27,052 nucleotides of DNA from a virus (IMGVR_UViG_2541047934_000004:1-27052), one strand, 5' to 3'. Positions 1-14,699 are shown, counted from the first letter of the stretch. Numbers and translations: made by a program. The notes: a model not told the origin generated them from the letters alone.

Positions 1-255
1 ACCGGATATTGTTGTCGGAGATGTAAAGGCCTTGCACTGTCAAGAACATCGAGGCGTCTGTCTCAGGAAGTCACCGAGCGTTTTTATGTGTGCACGGAGC
101 CGGGTTGTGGTCTGGTGTTTAAAACGCTTCAGACCATCAACCGCTTCATTGTTCGCCCGGTCACGCCGGACGAACTGGCAGAAAGCCTGCATGAAAAACA
201 GGAACTGCCGCCAGTACGGTTAAAAACACAATCATATTCGCTGCGTCTGGAATGA
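1..255 (+). CDS. delta: Delta/Ogr-family zinc-finger late-gene activator, C-terminal part (5' end outside window)
   Basis: Frame 1 is open from position 1 to TGA at 253-255. Translation ...CCRRCKGLALSRTSRRLSQEVTERFYVCTEPGCGLVFKTLQTINRFIVRP... carries the Ogr signature (C-x2-C, RTSR, ERY/F, second Cys pair, R-x-IV-P). It lies immediately upstream of psu as in the P4 sid-delta-psu operon. The listed ORF 32..223 is in another frame. Confidence 0.7.
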   Translation, partial: TGYCCRRCKGLALSRTSRRLSQEVTERFYVCTEPGCGLVFKTLQTINRFIVRPVTPDELAESLHEKQELPPVRLKTQSYSLRLE

Positions 256-328
256 GGGCTGCCGGTTAACCCCGGCCGTCGCCGCACACCGTATTTTTAT
301 TCTTCAGCATGATGAGAAAGAGATAACG

Positions 329-901
329 ATGGAAAGCACAGCCTTACAGCAGGCCTTTGACACCTGTCAGAATAACAAAGCAGCATGGCTGCAACGCAAA
401 AATGAGCTGGCTGCGGCCGAACAGGAATATCTGCGGCTTCTGTCCGGGGAAGGCAGAAACGTCAGTCGCCTGGACGAATTACGCAATATTATCGAAGTCA
501 GAAAATGGCAGGTGAATCAGGCTGCCGGTCGTTATATTCGTTCGCATGAAGCCGTTCAGCACATCAGCATCCGCGACCGGCTGAATGATTTTATGCTGCA
601 GCACGGCACAGCACTGGCGGCCGCACTGGCACCGGAGCTGATGGGCTACAGTGAGCTGACGGCCATTGCCCGAAACTGTGCCATACAGCGTGCCACAGAT
701 GCCCTGCGTGAAGCCCTCCTGTCCTGGCTTGCGAAGGGTGAAAAAATTAATTATTCCGCACAGGATAGCGACATTTTAACGACCATCGGATTCAGGCCTG
801 ACGCGGCTTCGGTGGATGACAGCCGTGAAAAATTCACCCCTGCGCAGAACATGATTTTTTCGCGTAAAAGTGCGCAACTGGCATCACGTCAGTCTGTGTA
901 A
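329..901 (+). CDS. psu: Psu, polarity suppression / capsid decoration protein (P4-like)
   Basis: 190-aa ORF whose translation (MESTALQQAFDTCQNNKAAWLQRKNELAAAEQEYLRLL...) matches the P4 Psu protein as I recall it, at the expected length and position (after delta, before cos). Confidence 0.85.
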   Translation: MESTALQQAFDTCQNNKAAWLQRKNELAAAEQEYLRLLSGEGRNVSRLDELRNIIEVRKWQVNQAAGRYIRSHEAVQHISIRDRLNDFMLQHGTALAAALAPELMGYSELTAIARNCAIQRATDALREALLSWLAKGEKINYSAQDSDILTTIGFRPDAASVDDSREKFTPAQNMIFSRKSAQLASRQSV

Positions 902-935
902 AACTCCCCGAAAATCCGCCCGTTTTACTGAAAAA

Positions 936-975
936 AGCCATGCATCGATAAGGTGCATGGCTTTGCATGCGTTTT
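936..975 (+). terminator. Rho-independent terminator after psu
   Basis: Perfect 9-bp stem agccatgca / tgcatggct (936-944 and 954-962) with a 9-nt loop, followed by ttgcatgcgtttt. Confidence 0.5.
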
Positions 976-1064
976 CCTGCCTCATTTTCTGTAAACCGTG
1001 CCATTCCCGGCGCGGTCTGAGCGTGTCAGTACAACTGCATTAAAACCGCCCCGCAAAGCGGGCG

Positions 1065-1083
1065 GGCGAGGCGGGGAAAGCAC
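1065..1083. other. cos cohesive-end 19-mer of P2/P4 type (satellite packaging site)
   Basis: Exact string ggcgaggcggggaaagcac, which is the 19-nt cohesive-end sequence of P2/P4 as I recall it, at the position expected for P4 cos (between psu and the cargo/int region). Confidence 0.7.
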
Positions 1084-1110
1084 TGCGCGCAGTATAAGAA
1101 TTAAATAGGT

Positions 1111-1128
1111 ATGGATTTTAAAATCCAT
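1111..1128 (-). terminator. Perfect 18-bp palindrome overlapping the stop codon of the NACHT gene (possible terminator or protein-binding site)
   Basis: atggattttaaaatccat is a perfect palindrome. It overlaps the stop codon of the minus-strand 652-aa ORF and lies 28 nt from the cos 19-mer. No strong U-tract follows, so the terminator call is weak. Confidence 0.3.
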
Positions 1129-3076
1129 CAAGTAGCTGATTGATACCATTGCTCTCATCACAATTTATTTGCTCTAACTCAAATAAAGCACTGTCGTACT
1201 TTATTTGGGGAGTGTTTTCAAATGACAATAAAGATTCGATTAGTCTTATTTCTTTATCTTTATTTATGTCTTTAAGTGAGTCTAAAGTTAAATTGAATTT
1301 AACTTCGGGTTGTTTTCCTACTTCCATCATGATATTTGACTCCAACTCTGGATCAGTATTGAAGAATCGATGTGTCTTATGGAAATAACTAGGTTTTCTT
1401 GATTTTAAAATACTTAGTATATCCGACTTGATAGTGCTTTCCCGTGCTATCACAAGCCAATGGTTGGCAACCCCTGTGATGGTGGTAATGATGTGGGAGC
1501 CATTTTCACTTAGTTCATTAAAGGCTCTTAAGTCACCCTTGAAAAAATCATTTAGCAACTCATTTTCTTTATCTTTATCAAAAAGGTAAATTATTGAATT
1601 GCCGGCTAATGATATTTCAGCCTTGGTTTTTATAGTATCGCAATTAAATTGCGCGGTCTCATTTTTTAATTCTTCGTAAGATGATTTTAAGTCTAAAAGC
1701 AAGCATTTTATTATACTTGATCTGAAAGATGAGTAATCAATATCAGCACAAAGTGAAAATAAATTTCTGTGACGAATGGATTCAGGGCTGTAATATAGCT
1801 TTGTTAATATTTCTTTTTGGCGTTCTTTTGTGTCACGACAGATAAACATAGCTGCAAAATATTCCATTAATGATTTGTGTGACCAACGAATAATAGCGCC
1901 TTCTTTGACAAATAATGGAACGGTTTCAATTAAGTCCTGAATAAAAAGAGATGGTGAAGTTGATATTCCGGGAATTTTTGAAATGATATTTTGCAATGTT
2001 ATTTGCAGATCGTCTTTCGTAAACTCAATTTTACCTCCGTCTTTCAAACACCAAAAACCTAATCTCCTTAAGACCTGATGGAAGTCAGTGGAGTCTAGCT
2101 TAGAAAATTTTTCTCTAACATAACCAAGTTCTTTAGTTAAATCATGAGACTCATACAAAGCGTCAAATACTTGGCTATAAAATAACTCTCTTTTTCTTGG
2201 TATTATCGGTTTGAATTTATATGCACAAAATAATAATGAAACATAAAGAGGTGTGGATAAAAATTCATTTAGATTATGACCATTCTCCAGTCGTAATCCT
2301 TTAATTAATTGAGATGAAATAGGGCCACGTCCATCATATCGACGTAATAGATCATACGCTTGATTCGTTTCTAATGGGTTGATTTTAAATCTTGAGAAAC
2401 CATGTAGTTCTGATAAGAAATTATCATGACGAGAAGTTATAATTATTTTGCTTTCTGAGAAATTATTAGCAAAGGTACTTAGTAAATTTACGATCTTGGA
2501 TTTGAGTTGTTGTGGGATTTCATCTATGCCATCGAAAAGATAAATAAAAGGGATTTTTTTGAGGCAGTTGTCTGAAATGTCTTCTCCTAAACCAAGTTGA
2601 TGTTTCACCTGTAGCGCAAAATCATAATCTTTAGCACGTCGTAATTCAATGTATATTGGAATGTATTCCTTATTAGCGATGCAATCTAAAGCAATTCTTT
2701 TCATTAGGGTGGACTTACCCATTCCTGCTGAGTCAGTGATTAATATATGATTGAAATTATCTAATAAATCTGCATTGTCTTTTATTAGGCATGTGTATGG
2801 TTTTTTTTCATTATCGTAATAAATGCTCATTGGCTCATAAATATCTAGAAGCTCTACTGGAGTATTTTGAAAAGCTAAGGTATTCACAAGGGAGCATTGC
2901 CCTTTCACATTTGATAGGAAACGTTCAAGATTTTTATTCAAGAAGCGTGCTGCATGTACATCTATTAAATAATTACGAACACTACTTTCTATGATAGGTA
3001 ATATTTTATTCTTAATAACCTCCTTTGCCCATGGAAGGGATGCAGAGACTAATACATCAAGAGATACTGGTTGCAT
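1118..3076 (-). CDS. NACHT/STAND-family P-loop NTPase (652 aa), candidate anti-phage NLR-like protein in the P4 accessory hotspot
   Basis: Walker A ILITDSAGMGKSTLMKRIA (GMGKST encoded at 2725-2708), NACHT-type Walker B IPFIYLFDGIDEI (hhhhDGxDE) and a downstream IIITSR motif. About 110 aa precede the P-loop and about 330 aa follow the NTPase core. ATG at 3076 is 3 nt after the integrase stop. The gene is visibly AT-rich compared with flanking genes. Confidence 0.75.
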   Translation of the reverse strand: MQPVSLDVLVSASLPWAKEVIKNKILPIIESSVRNYLIDVHAARFLNKNLERFLSNVKGQCSLVNTLAFQNTPVELLDIYEPMSIYYDNEKKPYTCLIKDNADLLDNFNHILITDSAGMGKSTLMKRIALDCIANKEYIPIYIELRRAKDYDFALQVKHQLGLGEDISDNCLKKIPFIYLFDGIDEIPQQLKSKIVNLLSTFANNFSESKIIITSRHDNFLSELHGFSRFKINPLETNQAYDLLRRYDGRGPISSQLIKGLRLENGHNLNEFLSTPLYVSLLFCAYKFKPIIPRKRELFYSQVFDALYESHDLTKELGYVREKFSKLDSTDFHQVLRRLGFWCLKDGGKIEFTKDDLQITLQNIISKIPGISTSPSLFIQDLIETVPLFVKEGAIIRWSHKSLMEYFAAMFICRDTKERQKEILTKLYYSPESIRHRNLFSLCADIDYSSFRSSIIKCLLLDLKSSYEELKNETAQFNCDTIKTKAEISLAGNSIIYLFDKDKENELLNDFFKGDLRAFNELSENGSHIITTITGVANHWLVIARESTIKSDILSILKSRKPSYFHKTHRFFNTDPELESNIMMEVGKQPEVKFNLTLDSLKDINKDKEIRLIESLLSFENTPQIKYDSALFELEQINCDESNGINQLLDGF

Positions 3077-3079
3077 GAA

Positions 3080-4288
3080 TTATACCTTATTTTCTACGTT
3101 TAAATTTTTGACCTTAAGTCCCCACCAGTTCATTAAATCGATTCTGGTATGTAAATATGTTGAGCGGTTATATGCTCTTCTAACTTCGTTTTTGTCAGAG
3201 TGCGCTAAAGCAGCTTCAATGACATCTGGGTTAAAACCTCTTTCATTCATGGCTGTACTTGCTATTGAACGTAGACCATGAGCAACCAGCTTCCCGCCAT
3301 AACCAATACGTTTTAAAGCAGCATTAGCAGTTTGGCTATTCATTGGCTGTTTTGGGTCATTTCTACTGGGAAAAACATGTTCACGATGAGCACTGATTGG
3401 TTTCATTACCTCCAGAATCTCTATTGCCTGAGGTGATAAAGGAACAATGTGTTCCCGCTTAGCTTTCATCCGTTCGGCTGGAATAGTCCAGAGCTTTGCG
3501 TCAAGATCGATCTCTGCCCAACGAGCACCGGAAGCTTCAGAAGGGCGCACAAGGGTCAGAAGCTGCCACTCAATTAGACAGCGAGTCGAAACAGAGAGGT
3601 TCGACATCACCAAAGAGCGCATGAGTTTTGGTAATTCTTCAGGTCGTAGCGTTGGCATGTGTTGCTTTTTGGGTTTCTCAAATGCCATACCAATACCAGA
3701 TGCCGGGTTTGCATCAATCAGGCCAGTGTTGACGGCGTAGATCATGATTTCGTTAATACGCTGCACCAGTCGACGTACAGTCTCTAGCGCCCCACGTGCT
3801 TTGATTGGCTCAAGGGTTTCAACTAGTGTTCGGGCTTTGATTTGCTGGACAGGGATCTCCCCGATGACAGGGAATACGTCTTTTTCCAGTGACCGCCATA
3901 TATCTTTAGCGTAATCGGGTGTAACGCTTTTGCTTTTGAGCTGGAACCAGTTAGCGGCGACCGTTGAAAAAATACTGTCCAGAGCGATTTGCTGCTGTTC
4001 CTCTGCAACTTCGGCCTGAATTTGCGGGTCAATTCCGTTGGCTAACAAAGCAAGGTAATCCGCTCTTAACCGTCGAGCATCAGCAAGTGAAAGGGCGGGG
4101 AAAGCACCAAGCCCCATCATTGTCCGCTGTTTTGTTGCTGGACGTTGATAACGGAAACGCCACAACTTCTTACCGTTCGTTTTAACGAGCAGAAAAAGAC
4201 CATCGCCATCATGTAACGTTAGATCCTTTTCTAACGCTCTAGCGCGCAGAACTTCTGTGCTGGTCAGGGGGCGTGTCGTTCTTGCCAC
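3080..4288 (-). CDS. int: Tyrosine integrase, P4/CP4-57 (IntA) type
   Basis: 402-aa ORF, N-terminus MARTTRPLTSTEVLRARALEKDLTLHDGDGLFLLVKTNGKKLWRFRYQRP typical of P4-family integrases; C-terminal catalytic region with HGLR and a conserved Tyr context. GTG start with aaggag RBS. Directly downstream of a tmRNA 3'-end copy, as for ssrA-intA. Confidence 0.9.
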   Translation of the reverse strand: MARTTRPLTSTEVLRARALEKDLTLHDGDGLFLLVKTNGKKLWRFRYQRPATKQRTMMGLGAFPALSLADARRLRADYLALLANGIDPQIQAEVAEEQQQIALDSIFSTVAANWFQLKSKSVTPDYAKDIWRSLEKDVFPVIGEIPVQQIKARTLVETLEPIKARGALETVRRLVQRINEIMIYAVNTGLIDANPASGIGMAFEKPKKQHMPTLRPEELPKLMRSLVMSNLSVSTRCLIEWQLLTLVRPSEASGARWAEIDLDAKLWTIPAERMKAKREHIVPLSPQAIEILEVMKPISAHREHVFPSRNDPKQPMNSQTANAALKRIGYGGKLVAHGLRSIASTAMNERGFNPDVIEAALAHSDKNEVRRAYNRSTYLHTRIDLMNWWGLKVKNLNVENKV

Positions 4289-4400: not shown

Positions 4401-4436
4401 ACACAAAAAAGCCCGCAGAGCTTGTGCCATGCGGGC
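4401..4436 (-). terminator. Rho-independent terminator immediately 3' of the tmRNA 3'-end copy (minus strand)
   Basis: On the minus strand: stem gcccgc, 14-nt loop, stem gcgggc, then tttttt (complement of aaaaaa at 4405-4410). It lies about 35 nt downstream of the CCA end of the tmRNA segment. Confidence 0.55.
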
Positions 4437-4472
4437 TTTCAGGATTTCTCCGGACGTATCCGGAAGAGCAAG

Positions 4473-4517
4473 TGGTGGAGCTGGCGGGAGTTGAACCCGC
4501 GTCCGAAATTCCTACAT
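4473..4517 (-). other. ssrA: 45-nt copy of the ssrA (tmRNA) 3' end = attachment core (attL/attR junction); not a complete tmRNA gene
   Basis: Minus strand reads atgtaggaatttcggacgcgggttcaactcccgccagctccacca, matching the 3'-terminal T-arm/acceptor end of enterobacterial tmRNA as I recall it. Upstream of it (plus coordinates above 4517) the sequence does not continue as tmRNA, so only the terminal ~45 nt are present here. Confidence 0.7.
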
Positions 4518-4602
4518 AGCATTTCAATGTCTGTAAAAACAATGATTTGCTTTGATTTTCAGTTGGTTAGATTTATGCGGTGTCTGTCCGTTTTATGGGT
4601 TT

Positions 4603-5271
4603 TTAACTTTCTGCCGCCAAAGTGCCGCCACTGCATTTGTCGCCTAAACGCCTATTCGAAACGATTAATCTCTCGGCGATCTTAATCTTGGAGAGCTTAT
4701 CTAGGCAGATAAAGCATATTGCTACTCCCGATACCACAAAATAGCTGCTTAAACCAAAGTATTGCCAAGTAGTTAGATGGTTTATCTTCTCCATCATCTT
4801 AGCACTTACTACAACAGAATAACTGAAAGGAAGTGCTACGATGAGACTGCTCATGAAGTAAATTAGAGTTGTTATGATTTTTATTAATTTTCTATATATG
4901 CTGTATTTATATCTTTTTTTATTCCATGCGAATATTTCTTTATGGGTGGTAATGGAAATTAGACTTTGACATTTGGAATAATTATCTATATCGCTAACGG
5001 GGTTTGTTGTGTTGAGTAATATTAATCTTTGTTTTTTTGTCAATGTGTTATCTTTGGTTAATGCAGCAATGCCGTAATCTTCCGCCAGTTTTTTGAAGGT
5101 CGGATCTTCACTGCTTTTATACATCTGATATGAAAATTCGCTAATGTTTTTACGTGATGTGAATAGTTTATCTTTTTTATAAGTCCACCCTGTTTTAAGC
5201 CCTAATAAGGATATAATGGCAGATAGGGAAGGGAATAATATTTTTATAAGTAACTCTAGTTCGCTATTCAT
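4603..5271 (-). CDS. Hypothetical membrane protein (222 aa), AT-rich cargo ORF between helper-prophage int and the att junction
   Basis: ATG at 5271 lies 10 nt after the int stop, same strand. Hydrophobic segments LLIKILFPSLSAIISLLGL, IITTLIYFMSSLIVALPFSYSVVV and YFGLSSYFVVSGVAICFICL suggest about three TM helices. Strongly AT-rich except the last ~25 codons (4603-4690), which are G+C-richer. Confidence 0.6.
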   Translation of the reverse strand: MNSELELLIKILFPSLSAIISLLGLKTGWTYKKDKLFTSRKNISEFSYQMYKSSEDPTFKKLAEDYGIAALTKDNTLTKKQRLILLNTTNPVSDIDNYSKCQSLISITTHKEIFAWNKKRYKYSIYRKLIKIITTLIYFMSSLIVALPFSYSVVVSAKMMEKINHLTTWQYFGLSSYFVVSGVAICFICLDKLSKIKIAERLIVSNRRLGDKCSGGTLAAES

Positions 5272-5281
5272 AAATTACTAC

Positions 5282-6298
5282 TTACCTCAAATTAAATAAA
5301 GGATTTTTAGTTACGGCATCTTCTAAATGGTCTGGGGCGAAGTGTGCATAGACCATGGTCATTTTTATATCTGAATGTCCTAGGATATCCCGCAAAACCA
5401 ATATGTTTCCACCATTCATCATAAAATGGCTAGCGAATGTATGACGCAGAACGTGAGTACATTGACCCTCTGGCAGATCGATACCAGCCCGCTTTACTGC
5501 ACGCTCAAAGGCTTTTCTGCATGGGGTGAATAACTTCCCCCTATTCTTAGGCAGTTCTTCATATAAATCCTTAGAAATAGGCACAGTTCGGTTTTTCTTG
5601 CCTTTGGTCTTGGTATAAGTGATACGGTATTTTGATACCTGATGACTCTGCAGGTTTTCGGCTTCGCTCCAGCGTGCGCCGGTGGCCAGGCATATTTTTG
5701 CAATCAAAAGCAGGCTGGAGCTTTGAGAATCGGCGCAGGCATCCAGCAGACGTTTAATTTCTTCCGGGGTCAGGAACGCCAATTCACTCTCAGCAATTTT
5801 AAATGTTGGCAGCCCAGCAAGCGGGTTGGGGGCTGACCAGTGGCCCAGCTTTTTCAGCGTACCAAAAACAGATGATAGATTGCGCTGTTCAAGGTTTACC
5901 GTGCGGGGCTTAACGGGCGACATAAACGTGCCATCTTCATTTCGTACTTCACCTTTTAACCGTGCTTCGCGGTATTTCGTAAAGTCACCGGCTGTCAGTT
6001 CTGAGGCGATGGGGTCGCCTAGACCATTACAGATAATTCTAAGTTTCGCCATGAGGCGCTTGGGGTCTGCGAGTGTCTGACCATACAGGGAATACCAAAG
6101 CTCAATTAATTCTGATAGGTGTCGCCGATCATCCTTTTCTCCTAACCACGGTTTTTTGTTCACTTCTTCCATTGTGAAGCTTTCAAATGCAATGGCTTCG
6201 CCTTTGGTAGCAAATTGCTTACGCACGCGCTTACCATTGCGTCCATTGGGATAGCACTCACACAACCATTTTCCGTTCGGCTGTTTTCTGATGGTCAT
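5282..6298 (-). CDS. int: Tyrosine integrase, P2/186 type
   Basis: 338-aa ORF; N-terminus MTIRKQPNGKWLCECYPNGRNGKRVRKQFATKGEA resembles P2 Int; C-terminal HVLRHTFASHFMMNGG...LGHSDIKMTMVYAHF carries the R-H-R-Y catalytic context. Sits 3 nt downstream of the repressor gene on the same strand, as in the P2 C-int operon. Confidence 0.9.
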   Translation of the reverse strand: MTIRKQPNGKWLCECYPNGRNGKRVRKQFATKGEAIAFESFTMEEVNKKPWLGEKDDRRHLSELIELWYSLYGQTLADPKRLMAKLRIICNGLGDPIASELTAGDFTKYREARLKGEVRNEDGTFMSPVKPRTVNLEQRNLSSVFGTLKKLGHWSAPNPLAGLPTFKIAESELAFLTPEEIKRLLDACADSQSSSLLLIAKICLATGARWSEAENLQSHQVSKYRITYTKTKGKKNRTVPISKDLYEELPKNRGKLFTPCRKAFERAVKRAGIDLPEGQCTHVLRHTFASHFMMNGGNILVLRDILGHSDIKMTMVYAHFAPDHLEDAVTKNPLFNLR

Positions 6299-6301
6299 AA
6301 G

Positions 6302-6934
6302 TTAGAGGTTCTTGATTACTTTGACTGCACGTCCTACGACTTCCACATCATCTACAGAACATTCAAATGAAGTGTCATCTTGGCTAACTACTATTTTGTT
6401 TCCGGGTATGCGCGCAATTTTGACGATGCTTTTAACTCCGTCCATATCGACTAACCAGAAGCCATTACTGACTTGTTTAACGGACGTATCCACTACAAAG
6501 CTATTATTAGCTGTTTTAACAAATAAAGCGTTGGATGAGTCACCATCGAGCAGGCTGCTATCAATAAGAATTTCATCACTTGCCTGCAGTTCGCCGTTCT
6601 TCAGTTCAACACGTTTGATGCTAGGAGCAACGATCTTAGAAAGTGGTCTTACAGTGACGGGAGGTTCATTTTTGAGATTTGTTTCTTCGTTCTCACACGC
6701 ATACATATCTCCTTGACCAGTAGCCAGCCATAGAAGGGAAGCTCCTGTTTCAAGGGCACATTGAATTACCCATTCGGCAGGAAAGCTATCCCTTAAGTAT
6801 CTGTTAGCCATAGTGCTTTTGGATACTTCCAGATGTTCGCAGAGCTGCTGTCGTGAGCTGAAGTTGTAAGCCTTAATAAGCCTGTTAATTGCATCGCGCC
6901 CACCACTATCATTTCCCGCTTTGATTAAGCTCAT
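6302..6934 (-). CDS. cI: CI-type immunity repressor (186-like, HTH N-terminal domain)
   Basis: About 210 aa; N-terminal HTH-like segment (SSRQQLCEHLEVSKSTMANRYLRD); position between int and the divergent early promoter. Start chosen at ATG 6934 (aagagg RBS) rather than the TTG at 6940 listed in the ORF track. Confidence 0.75.
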   Translation of the reverse strand: MSLIKAGNDSGGRDAINRLIKAYNFSSRQQLCEHLEVSKSTMANRYLRDSFPAEWVIQCALETGASLLWLATGQGDMYACENEETNLKNEPPVTVRPLSKIVAPSIKRVELKNGELQASDEILIDSSLLDGDSSNALFVKTANNSFVVDTSVKQVSNGFWLVDMDGVKSIVKIARIPGNKIVVSQDDTSFECSVDDVEVVGRAVKVIKNL

Positions 6935-6945
6935 AATCAAACCTC

Positions 6946-6974
6946 TTGACGTATATAAAAAGTGATCTTAATAT
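6946..6974 (+). promoter_or_regulatory. Sigma70-type early lytic promoter (pR-like) in the cI/apl intergenic switch region
   Basis: ttgacg (6946-6951), 17-nt spacer, taatat (6969-6974); about 75 nt upstream of apl. Overlaps the cI translation-initiation region. Confidence 0.6.
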
Positions 6975-7050
6975 CCATTCATGGTTTGAAAAGCAAAACC
7001 AAACCACATAAAACAAGATAAAACGAAACCAAACTAAGAGATACTGCACT

Positions 7051-8899: not shown

Positions 8900-9126
8900 T
8901 GGCTGATGCAATGGATCTCGTACAGCAGCGAGTTGAAGAAGAACGCCAACGTCATATCCGTGCTGCCCGTGCCAAAACGCCGGGCGTGTCCCGCGTGCTT
9001 TGCGTTGAGTGTGAAGCGCCAATTCCGCCAGCACGCCGCCGTGCCATTCCGGGGGTGCAGCTTTGCATTACCTGTCAGGAAATCGCAGAGCTGAAAGGCA
9101 AACATTACAACGGAGGTGCTGTATGA
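8899..9126 (+). CDS. TraR/DksA-family C4 zinc-finger protein
   Basis: 75 aa with CVECEAPIPPARRRAIPGVQLCITCQE (C-x2-C ... C-x2-C) typical of phage TraR/DksA-like proteins; caggag RBS. Confidence 0.65.
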   Translation: MADAMDLVQQRVEEERQRHIRAARAKTPGVSRVLCVECEAPIPPARRRAIPGVQLCITCQEIAELKGKHYNGGAV

Positions 9127-9980
9127 GCACCATCCTGAAATGGGCGGGAAATAAAACCGCCATTATGTCCGAACTGAAAAAACACCTTCCTGCTGGCCCG
9201 CGACTGGTTGAACCTTTCGCGGGTTCCTGTGCTGTGATGATGGAGACGGATTACCCCAGCTATCTGGTTGCGGATATTAATCCTGATTTAATCAACCTCT
9301 ATAAAAAGGTTGCTGCTGATTGTGAATCGTTTATATCTCGCGCCAGAGTTTTATTTGAGATCGCAAACAGGGAGGTGGCTTATTACAACATAAGGCAGGA
9401 GTTTAATTACTCCACTGAAATTACTGATTTCATGAAAGCGGTATATTTCCTGTATCTCAATCGTCACGGTTACCGTGGTTTATGTCGCTATAACAAGAGC
9501 GGGCATTTCAACATTCCCTACGGTAATTATAAAAATCCGTATTTCCCTGAAAAAGAAATTCGCGCATTTGCAGAAAAGGCCCAGCGAGCAACGTTTATCT
9601 GCGCCAGCTTTGATGAAACGCTGGCGATGTTGAAGGCGGGGGATGTGGTGTATTGCGATCCGCCGTATGACGGTACGTTTTCCGGCTATCACACTGATGG
9701 TTTCACTGAAGATGACCAGTATCACCTGGCATCTGTTCTTGAACATCGGTCATCAGAAGGACATCCGGTCATTGTTTCTAACAGTGACACATCCCTGATC
9801 CGTTCGCTGTATCGCAATTTTACTCACCACTACATCAAGGCAAAACGCAGCATCGGTGTGGCAGCTGGCGAGGGTAAATCAGCAACAGAAATCATTGCTG
9901 TTTCCGGGCCGCGCTGCTGGGTGGGATTTGATTATTCGCGTGGCGTGGATAGTTCTGCCGTGTACGGAGTACGTGCATGA
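9123..9980 (+). CDS. dam: DNA adenine methyltransferase (Dam-like, N6-adenine, DPPY motif)
   Basis: N-terminus [23 protein letters not shown]...EPFAGSCAV (AdoMet-binding FxGxG-like) and catalytic [12 protein letters not shown] (DPPY). ATG 9123 overlaps the stop of the upstream gene; the listed 9063 start is an in-frame upstream extension. Confidence 0.85.
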
Positions 9981-13289: not shown

Positions 13290-14699
13290 ATGTCTTTTCT
13301 TGATATAAAAAAAATGAGTAAAGAGAGGTTTAATGCTTTTGTTGATTGGACCAGAATGCCAAATACTGAACTTTTAGGCTATGAGTTTGAGTGGTACTGT
13401 AGTCCGAGAGAGTTCCTGCTAGGGGCACTATTATTGGATCAAATCGATGAAGATTATAGCGGTATTGTTTTAGCAAGAGACTTAAGTGGGAGATATAGAT
13501 GTATTGACCTATTTACTAGTGTTTCAGAAATGAATTCTGCACGAGCAAAACTAAAGAAATTAATGCGGAAGCATACTAAATTAAACGTAAAAGTATTTCC
13601 ACAAGGTGATGAAACTTATAAAGCAATGGATTTATTCACACCTATAGTTACACCAGATAAACTTCATCATCATTTTTCATTATTTGGTAAATACGCGAAC
13701 TGGTCGCCTGCAACAGGGATAATCAAGGAAATGATGAATCATTTTGAGGATGTCGACGGGAATTTTATAGAGCAGTTTCAGACAACAGGTTTTGATGCCC
13801 GGCTATGGGAGTTATATCTTTTCGCATATTTACGAGAGGAACACTTTTGGCTAGATAGGCAGTTTAATGCCCCTGATTATGTGGCACGTAAGTATGGTAA
13901 TACTATTTGCATTGAAGCTGTAACGGTTAATCCAACAGGGAATGATATTAATCAATCATCTGAAATGCTATCAGAACCTAAAAGTAAGGAAGAATTGCTA
14001 GAGAAAATAGAGAATTATATGCCGATTAAATTTGGAAGTTCTCTCTATTCTAAACTGAAAAAGAAAACTCGATACTGGGATCTAGAACATGTTAAGGGGA
14101 ATCCTTTAATTTTCGCAATTGCTGATTTTCATGAACCAAACTCTATGATTTGGTCCCATAGTGCACTTTGGCAGTATCTTTATGGTATTCGCTATGAGCA
14201 TGTTAAATCTGAAGATGGATGTTACAGTTTAGCAACTAAGAAAATTATATCGCATCAATTTGAGAAAAAGGAAATTCCTTCAGGCTTTTTCTTCTTGGAT
14301 GAGTCTGAAAATATTTCGGCCGTCCTTAGTTCTAATAGTGGTACTATATCGAAGTTTAATCGGATGGGAAAACTGGCTGGTTTTGGAAGAAGTGACCTTA
14401 GATTATTTAGGAGTGGTTACTGCCATGATCATGACCCAGAGGCATTATATCCAGCAGCATTTAGTTTTGAAGTGAAAGAAGGCGATATTACAGAAACATG
14501 GGCAGAAGGTTTAAATATGTATCATAATCCTAATGCTAAATATCCTGTAGATCCTGATTTATTTCCTTCAATAGCACATCATTTTCTTGAAAATGGAGAG
14601 GTTAAAAGTATAGTTCCTGACTTTCATCCGTATACATCTATTACCATAAATGTCTTAACTCAAAATAATAAAAAACAAAAAATCAGAGTAGATGAGTAA
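13290..14699 (+). CDS. Hypothetical protein (469 aa), AT-rich cargo gene between cos and portal gene; candidate novel anti-phage or accessory function
   Basis: Long ORF with gagg RBS 7 nt upstream of ATG, own AT-rich promoter-like leader, convergent with Q. No P-loop, HNH, HTH or other motif I can recognise by eye. Composition is clearly more AT-rich than the neighbouring phage genes. Confidence 0.75.
   Translation: MSFLDIKKMSKERFNAFVDWTRMPNTELLGYEFEWYCSPREFLLGALLLDQIDEDYSGIVLARDLSGRYRCIDLFTSVSEMNSARAKLKKLMRKHTKLNVKVFPQGDETYKAMDLFTPIVTPDKLHHHFSLFGKYANWSPATGIIKEMMNHFEDVDGNFIEQFQTTGFDARLWELYLFAYLREEHFWLDRQFNAPDYVARKYGNTICIEAVTVNPTGNDINQSSEMLSEPKSKEELLEKIENYMPIKFGSSLYSKLKKKTRYWDLEHVKGNPLIFAIADFHEPNSMIWSHSALWQYLYGIRYEHVKSEDGCYSLATKKIISHQFEKKEIPSGFFFLDESENISAVLSSNSGTISKFNRMGKLAGFGRSDLRLFRSGYCHDHDPEALYPAAFSFEVKEGDITETWAEGLNMYHNPNAKYPVDPDLFPSIAHHFLENGEVKSIVPDFHPYTSITINVLTQNNKKQKIRVDE

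Follow-up and report, generated by a model that had tools for sequence, protein, structure and literature searches.

A Predicted Three-Helix Membrane Protein Gene as Cargo of the int–att Interval in a 186-Like Prophage at ssrA

Gene Organization Between int and the ssrA End

A 27,052-nucleotide stretch of viral DNA (IMGVR_UViG_2541047934_000004:1-27052; hereafter the window, meaning the whole stretch) was analysed. The gene under study was ORF222, an open reading frame (ORF) of 222 codons on the minus strand, which was located between the integrase gene int and the attachment (att) core of a prophage at the 3′ end of ssrA, the transfer-messenger RNA (tmRNA) gene. The Prokaryotic Genome Annotation Pipeline (PGAP) predicted the same coding sequence and labelled it "hypothetical protein" (WP_001083625.1), and no mention of WP_001083625 was found in the literature. 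The features of this region, in amino acids (aa) and nucleotides (nt), are as follows.

About 4405–4440, minus strand: intrinsic terminator of ssrA, the first one predicted downstream of cI–int–ORF222 (terminator scan)
4474–4518, minus strand: 3′-terminal 45 nt of ssrA, forming the att core and the prophage end; the identical block is present in SEN8, Cartapus and RE2010, and the name follows the CP-1639 ssrA annotation
4603–5271, minus strand: coding sequence of ORF222, 222 aa with an ATG start, a member of the phrog_21256 family (WP_001083625.1)
5272–5281, minus strand: spacer of 10 nt between the int stop codon (5282–5284) and the ORF222 ATG (5269–5271)
5282–6298, minus strand: int, a P2/186-type tyrosine integrase of 338 aa (Pfam Int_N and Phage_integrase)
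6302–6940, minus strand: CI repressor of the 186 type, at the head of the leftward (lysogenic) operon (Pfam Phage_CI_repr and Phage_CI_C; PGAP start at 6934)

The int gene shared 83–92% nucleotide identity with the int genes of Felsduovirus and Elveevirus. An Apl/Cox-like gene, CII (CP76), a Dam-type methylase, GpA, PD-T7-1, portal and terminase were found rightward of the switch. According to CI, int and this rightward gene set, the element is a 186-like member of the Peduoviridae. ARAGORN and Rfam gave no tRNA or tmRNA match in the window, where ssrA is represented by its final 45 nt alone.

An earlier note on this DNA had placed a 222-aa ORF 10 nt past the int stop codon on the same strand, and the coordinates agreed exactly. 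A GAGG motif was present upstream of the start, where it overlapped the last int codons. The strong AT-richness that the note had described was also borne out, because the G+C content was 34.4% for ORF222, 46.5% for int and 49.8% for the whole window. ORF222 was AT-rich at every codon position (G+C of 0.32, 0.35 and 0.36). The same note had called the gene a moron. Its atypical composition and its presence or absence among relatives agreed with this term, but its strict sense, with an independent promoter and terminator, was not supported: no promoter-like site was found on the minus strand in the 10-nt gap between int and ORF222, the only downstream terminator was that of ssrA, and the gene looked operon-embedded. 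Furthermore, the terminator scan predicted no minus-strand intrinsic terminator between 6940 and 4424. Judging from the operon layout and the homology to the 186 switch, ORF222 would be third on the cI–int transcript of the lysogen, which would end at the ssrA terminator.

Conservation and Spread of the Family

Homologues of ORF222 formed 22 clusters at 90% identity in a word-indexed search. When 1.84 billion proteins were searched exhaustively with a profile, 75 representatives at 50% identity were obtained, nearly all of which had 200–230 aa and the same layout. The exact ORF222 protein was encoded by 740 contigs, and 928 contigs encoded a close variant; every copy was unnamed, and the gene was intact in all 29 complete Escherichia coli genomes that carried it. 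The protein matched phrog_21256, a family of unknown function, over its full length (E = 6.6e-155, residues 1–222 of a 222-position profile), and this family was also matched by 65 of the 67 aligned relatives. In the comparison of ORF222 with an 84%-identical allele, the ratio of nonsynonymous to synonymous substitution rates (dN/dS) was 0.12 with a dS of 0.75. These sequence comparisons indicate that ORF222 is a genuine gene and that purifying selection acts on it.

No phrog_21256 family member was found by hmmsearch in 80 species-representative loci with a related int. Hence, the family is rare cargo and not a fixture of the phage group. A tblastn search of the ORF222 protein against 50,697 phage records (INPHARED) also gave no match.

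Predicted Structure and Membrane Topology

The membrane segments were evaluated by hydropathy and by structure prediction. The Kyte-Doolittle profile had hydrophobic segments at residues 5–27, 128–155 and 170–193 (approximate limits), and the AlphaFold model placed transmembrane (TM) helices at 2–27, 124–149 and 168–207. Both methods gave three helices, in line with the "about three" of the earlier note. The model from a 67-sequence alignment had a predicted local distance difference test (pLDDT) value of 91.5 and a predicted template modelling (pTM) score of 0.79; it superseded a mediocre first run on 15 sequences (pLDDT of 69.5). It comprised a TM1 helix that reached into the cytoplasm (2–54), three helices and a beta-hairpin (57–116), TM2 (124–149), a short loop, and TM3 continuing into a basic tail (168–207).

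Family-wide, the loop of 100 aa had on average 18.6 lysine and arginine residues versus 12.0 aspartate and glutamate residues, and the N-terminus was acidic. By the positive-inside rule, these charges place the N-terminus outside, the C-terminus inside and the folded domain in the cytoplasm. The predicted ORF222 product is thus an inner-membrane protein of three helices, in which residues 28–127, between TM1 and TM2, form a basic alpha+beta domain on the cytoplasmic side. The predicted periplasmic exposure was limited to approximately 4 + 15 residues, including a short variable periplasmic loop at about 151–169. The cytoplasmic domain was the most conserved part and the periplasmic loop the least conserved; the helices and the loop were the most variable.

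No structural relative emerged from the databases searched. The best Foldseek match in the PDB had an E value of 0.14 and corresponded to BAR domains with TM-scores of at most 0.28, and nothing was found in BFVD at E ≤ 0.001. A profile search of the PDB by sequence gave designed helical proteins only. A winged-helix-like form of the cytoplasmic domain, with three or four helices and a beta-hairpin, was suspected but is not claimed.

Boundaries of the Replaceable Cassette

The limits of the cargo were determined by comparison with related phages and prophages, and the following features were delineated.

4519–4630, minus strand: arm of the phage attachment site (attP), 74–82% identical to the SEN8, Cartapus and RE2010 phage genomes and to the Kp4865-2 record
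4603–4647, minus strand: C-terminal extension outside the family, residues 209–222 LGDKCSGGTLAAES and the stop codon (14 codons)
4612–4630, minus strand: direct repeat TGGCGGCA-CTT-TGGCGGCA, with 8-bp units and a period of 11 bp, located where the attP arm faces int
About 4631–5296, minus strand: replaceable AT-rich cassette, bounded by the Int codons ...KNPL on one side and the attP arm repeat on the other, so that it contains the int stop codon and the 4 codons before it
4648–5271, minus strand: family core of ORF222, residues 1–208, where the alignments end in ...AERLIxSNR (profile of 208 positions)

The blastn homology to related phages spanned 4473–4630, was lost after 4630 and resumed at 5289–5301 in the 3′ end of int. 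The Int protein was conserved through ...HLEDAVTKNPL in all relatives, and its last 3–8 codons differed with what followed (window positions 5282–5296 compared with loci L001–L003, L008, L012–L014, L099, L103–L108, L110 and L111). The homology limits and the divergence of Int after KNPL together define the cassette at about 4631–5296. Moreover, because the last 3–8 Int codons vary with each cargo gene, cargo exchange recombines within the int 3′ end, so that each swap replaces these codons. Same-strand cargo genes in the relatives started approximately 2–22 nt past the int stop codon, mostly 2–14 nt. Their position within about 22 nt of this stop would tie their expression to the lysogenic cI–int transcript.

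At the other edge, the earlier note had suggested that the ORF crosses an insertion boundary, and the ORF222 reading frame indeed enters attP-arm DNA. The last nine codons (SGGTLAAES) and the TAA stop were encoded by the conserved arm, so translation of this allele ends inside it. Relatives ended at 207–209 aa or had unrelated tails, and the pLDDT was only 59–65 in the C-terminal extension. The G+C content rose toward the 3′ end, from 32.5% at 4691–5271 to 41.9% at 4648–4690 and 51.1% at 4603–4647. The compositional shift that the note had assigned to the last 25 or so codons (4603–4690) was therefore present, but its extent was revised: 14 codons lie beyond the family core, with the boundary at about 4630–4647.

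The direct repeat at 4612–4630 overlapped ORF222 codons 214–220 and was conserved in the phage genomes and at empty sites. In the empty sites of SEN8 and Xenorhabdus, the arm repeat ATGGCGGCAnTTTGGCGGCAG was situated within 3–4 nt of the int stop codon. The repeat is a candidate arm-type Int binding site. ORF222 was translated through the arm repeat, and its stop codon fell at a conserved TTAAAAAC motif just past it.

Occupants of the int–att Slot in Related Prophages

The earlier note had proposed comparing the int–att interval among related prophages. The interval was empty in some of them and held unrelated genes in others, and no single ORF of ordinary composition occupied it in all relatives. 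The slot was empty in SEN8. Among ssrA prophages of other genera, five or six were empty, with ssrA 134–140 nt past the int stop codon, and three carried AT-rich ORFs of 343–518 aa. Many of the more distant int relatives had an AT-rich ORF starting −15 to +20 nt from the int stop codon, and the occupants included a TIR protein, PDC-S49 KAP NTPases and a HEPN-like protein. A RES gene was present in the slot of Cartapus/LF82 and RE2010.

In E. coli, int was found at a nucleotide identity of at least 80% in 222 of 5,426 complete genomes, 29 of which carried ORF222. An int of at least 95% identity was likewise present in 29 complete genomes, and all six of the high-identity int matches sampled were also on the list of ORF222 carriers. 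Natural lysogens include E. coli C21 (NZ_CP052877.1) and O157:H16 98-3133 (NZ_CP051001.1). Other E. coli int alleles were followed by GapS1, by unknown proteins of 309–353 aa, by an anti-phage dCTP deaminase encoded on the opposite strand or, in 11 genomes, by the Cartapus/LF82 RES gene; the GapS1 and dCTP deaminase identities are PGAP names.

The int–att interval has been named as a minor defence hotspot of P2 (NAR 2026, PMC13586616). That paper describes the hotspot and not ORF222; hence, the type of locus is already known and its occupant here is new. The present locus resembles the int–att hotspot (PMC13586616) and the P2/P4 hotspots (Rousset et al., 2022, PMC9122126) in its position, in its variable content among close relatives and in its AT-rich cassette, and the defence-type genes in neighbouring alleles of the slot and the presence of PD-T7-1 at the GpA–GpQ hotspot of the same prophage are further likenesses. 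ORF222 differs in that it matched no model of the DefenseFinder or PADLOC type and has no reported anti-phage activity. In anatomical terms, ORF222 is very probably a cargo gene of the int–att slot in a 186-like prophage at the ssrA 3′ end.

Several individual loci were also noted. The anti-phage dCTP deaminase gene on the opposite strand of the int–att interval was observed in E. coli loci L107 and L109, and an opposite-strand gene with a dCMP/cytidine-deaminase domain (PF00383) adjoined the phrog_21256 gene of Siccibacter (L012:5767-7500). In L103 (NZ_CP070071.1) and L105 (NZ_CP024886.1), an int of 90–92% DNA identity adjoined glaH and not ssrA, with unknown cargo of 309 and 353 aa, respectively. 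A shift of integration site may go together with minor changes in int. The cargo at L104:1445-2476 and L105:1419-2480 (minus strand), translated by eye, had hydrophobic N-terminal stretches, and that at L103:1423-2352 (minus strand) had a weak PADLOC match to "2TM effector" (E = 8e-5). Membrane proteins may be over-represented in the slot.

Genomic Contexts of Homologues

In 186-like prophages (E. coli, Salmonella, Siccibacter, Cronobacter) and metagenome contigs, ORF222 alleles of 47–84% identity followed int at a distance of 8–14 nt. This tight spacing was seen in six allele-bearing prophages other than the present one. Cargo alleles were only 47–67% identical where the paired Int proteins were 91–94% identical. 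Such a pattern suggests divergence or allele exchange of the cargo, as expected of conflict genes.

Distant homologues occurred as prophage cargo adjoining SNIPE and ABC-3C genes, beside a Tn7-like transposon and a toxin–antitoxin pair, beside an AAA_15/DUF4276 pair, and next to a reverse transcriptase in an element of the VapE type. No recurrent partner gene was found across at least 15 family contexts, and the gene was always solitary.

Comparison With Known Families and Systems

Pfam, NCBIfam and PADLOC gave no significant match for the ORF222 protein and no reproducible one among the 67 relatives, and these three resources thus provided no defence-protein homology. The matches to the mannose-6-phosphate receptor (E = 0.039) and Cas2_II (E = 0.007) were below the cut-off and were not reproduced in relatives. 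A single weak match to 1TM-TIR (E = 0.012) was seen in none of the 66 other family members. These candidates were rejected.

Superinfection-exclusion proteins offered a first comparison. The lactococcal Sie2009 and streptococcal Ltp proteins are encoded between int and the repressor gene, and P22 SieA and T4 Imm are further examples of the classic exclusion-protein layout. ORF222 resembles Sie2009, Ltp of Streptococcus thermophilus TP-J34, P22 SieA, T4 Imm and HK97 gp15 in that it encodes a small non-enzymatic membrane protein beside int and the repressor gene, presumably made in the lysogen. However, it has three helices and a cytoplasmic domain of 100 aa instead of a single anchor and an external domain, and its family, unlike the exclusion proteins of lysogeny modules, also occurs outside prophages. 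No similarity was found to the SieA, SieB, Imm, Sie2009, Ltp and gp15 families; PHROGs, which covers these families, gave phrog_21256 only.

Membrane effectors of other defence systems offered a second comparison. As with lambda RexB, the TM effectors of CBASS and Pycsar, and the Rst hydrolase-3TM and 2TM-1TM-TIR systems, ORF222 encodes a multi-helix inner-membrane protein carried as cargo of a phage or satellite hotspot, for which membrane disruption is plausible. The effectors of RexAB, CBASS, Pycsar and Rst need a partner gene for a sensor or for signal production, whereas ORF222 is solitary and has no profile match. A likeness to class I holins of the lambda S type was also noted, namely three TM helices, an N-out/C-in topology and a basic C-terminal tail, all as predicted. 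Class I holins have about 100 aa and belong to the lysis cassette, whereas the ORF222 family has 208–222 aa, a folded cytoplasmic domain between TM1 and TM2, and a site in the lysogeny operon. The size, the folded domain, the lysogeny-operon site and the lack of a Pfam holin match argue against a class I holin.

Possible Function of ORF222

There is about an even chance that ORF222 encodes an anti-phage membrane protein. The earlier note had suggested a superinfection-exclusion or abortive-infection factor, for which the homology searches gave no support; an anti-phage role was favoured because of the other occupants of the slot and the mobile-element and defence contexts of the family, and action at the inner membrane was proposed because of the membrane location and the lack of enzymatic features. 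In the proposed mechanism, the ORF222 protein would act alone at the inner membrane and shield the lysogen from other phages. The cytoplasmic domain would detect an infection cue, and the three helices would then assemble, by which the membrane would be depolarised or permeabilised in a response of the abortive-infection type. In known systems, transmembrane proteins are thought to be suicide effectors (PMC9122126). An abortive mode specifically is considered somewhat unlikely for ORF222.

Several points weigh against an anti-phage role of this kind. Hotspot genes are not all defence genes, and three family members were lone chromosomal genes with neither a mobile-element nor a defence context (Klebsiella quasipneumoniae, L010/L011; a JGI contig, L112; and a Desulfobacteraceae metagenome-assembled genome (MAG), L113). 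The best-conserved part of the protein was the presumed sensor, and the helices and the loop varied the most, which is the reverse of many sensor–effector defence proteins. No conserved catalytic-looking residues were found across the family. Moreover, the consensus promoter scan gave no promoter for the lysogenic operon and only a rightward pR-like site at 6946–6974; a weak TTGCTT-17-TATTAA seen by eye on the minus strand near 7000–6965 is not claimed as a promoter.

Superinfection exclusion, in which the protein would block the translocation of incoming phage DNA, either directly or by occupying an entry component of the host membrane, and the cell would survive, was judged an unlikely alternative. 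A small non-enzymatic inner-membrane protein in the lysogeny operon is the classic layout of such factors, and the helices and periplasmic loop evolve fastest, which would fit an exposure to phage ejection proteins. However, the sequence was unrelated to any annotated exclusion family in PHROGs, the conserved part was cytoplasmic with so few residues exposed to the periplasm, and the homologues outside prophages, in defence-island-like and lone chromosomal settings, would be unusual for phage-specific exclusion proteins. The data cannot separate an abortive mode from a block of DNA entry. The abortive mode was put slightly ahead in view of the cytoplasmic position of the conserved part and of the family members found outside prophages.

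Less probable still is a non-defence accessory gene carried in a permissive slot, which would alter host physiology, for example by modulating a transporter, a channel or the envelope state, or would tune the lysogeny of the prophage itself. The lone chromosomal copies and the lack of defence homology are consistent with such a gene. In the Desulfobacteraceae MAG, 20 nt separated the copy from a preceding TrkA-type K+ channel gene, and the copy overlapped with an acetyltransferase gene. The K. quasipneumoniae copy had a G+C content of 45% (apparently ameliorated) versus 28–34% for the prophage-borne and JGI-contig alleles. By contrast, every named occupant of the int–att slot was a defence-type gene, most other family contexts were mobile-element cargo or defence neighbourhoods, and the alleles were strongly diverged relative to the flanking int, all of which argues against an accessory role.

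It is highly improbable that ORF222 is non-functional, whether a chance ORF or a decaying remnant of an insertion junction: its 14 C-terminal codons are junction and arm sequence and not family sequence, and a few copies are truncated or frameshifted (P0018 and partial cluster members), but this explanation is effectively refuted by the low dN/dS, the length and architecture kept across the 75 diverged representatives, the confident AlphaFold model driven by co-evolution, the hundreds of contigs with the identical protein or its close variant, and the intact E. coli copies.

With regard to the anti-phage interpretation, phrog_21256 can be proposed, tentatively, as the prototype of a new single-gene family of anti-phage proteins, with a conserved cytoplasmic alpha+beta fold that lacks relatives among solved structures and with an undescribed membrane mechanism; the gene would have been spread to the Enterobacteriaceae by 186-like prophages as an extension of the cI–int operon. 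If ORF222 is protective, it would represent a new compact single-gene family of membrane-embedded immunity or exclusion proteins of about 210 aa with no known domain or structural relative, and it would provide experimental support for a defence-hotspot role of the little-studied int–att slot in P2/186-like prophages. If it lacks anti-phage activity, it would be an ordinary hypothetical prophage gene. ORF222 is a compact and readily testable defence or exclusion candidate.

Neighbouring Elements and Other Prophage Cargo

The 186-like prophage was arranged in tandem with a P4-like satellite at ssrA, and it is plausible that the prophage acts as helper of the adjoining satellite. The remaining features of these two elements are as follows.

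329–901, plus strand: Psu of the P4-like satellite
1118–3076, minus strand: STAND NTPase with NACHT and SNaCT5, 652 aa, AT-rich, cargo of the psu–int hotspot of the P4-like satellite
3080–4288, minus strand: P4-type integrase at the end of the P4-like satellite
9123–9980, plus strand: D12-class N6-adenine DNA methyltransferase, encoded immediately 5′ of gpA within the early operon
13290–14699, plus strand: PD-T7-1 gene, 469 aa and about 36% G+C, at the canonical (main) GpA–GpQ hotspot; PADLOC match with E = 1.3e-196 and no Pfam domain

The D12-class methyltransferase may protect the phage from restriction. In other strains, the ORF222-bearing prophage adjoined different ssrA islands, for example, in strain C21 (L102).
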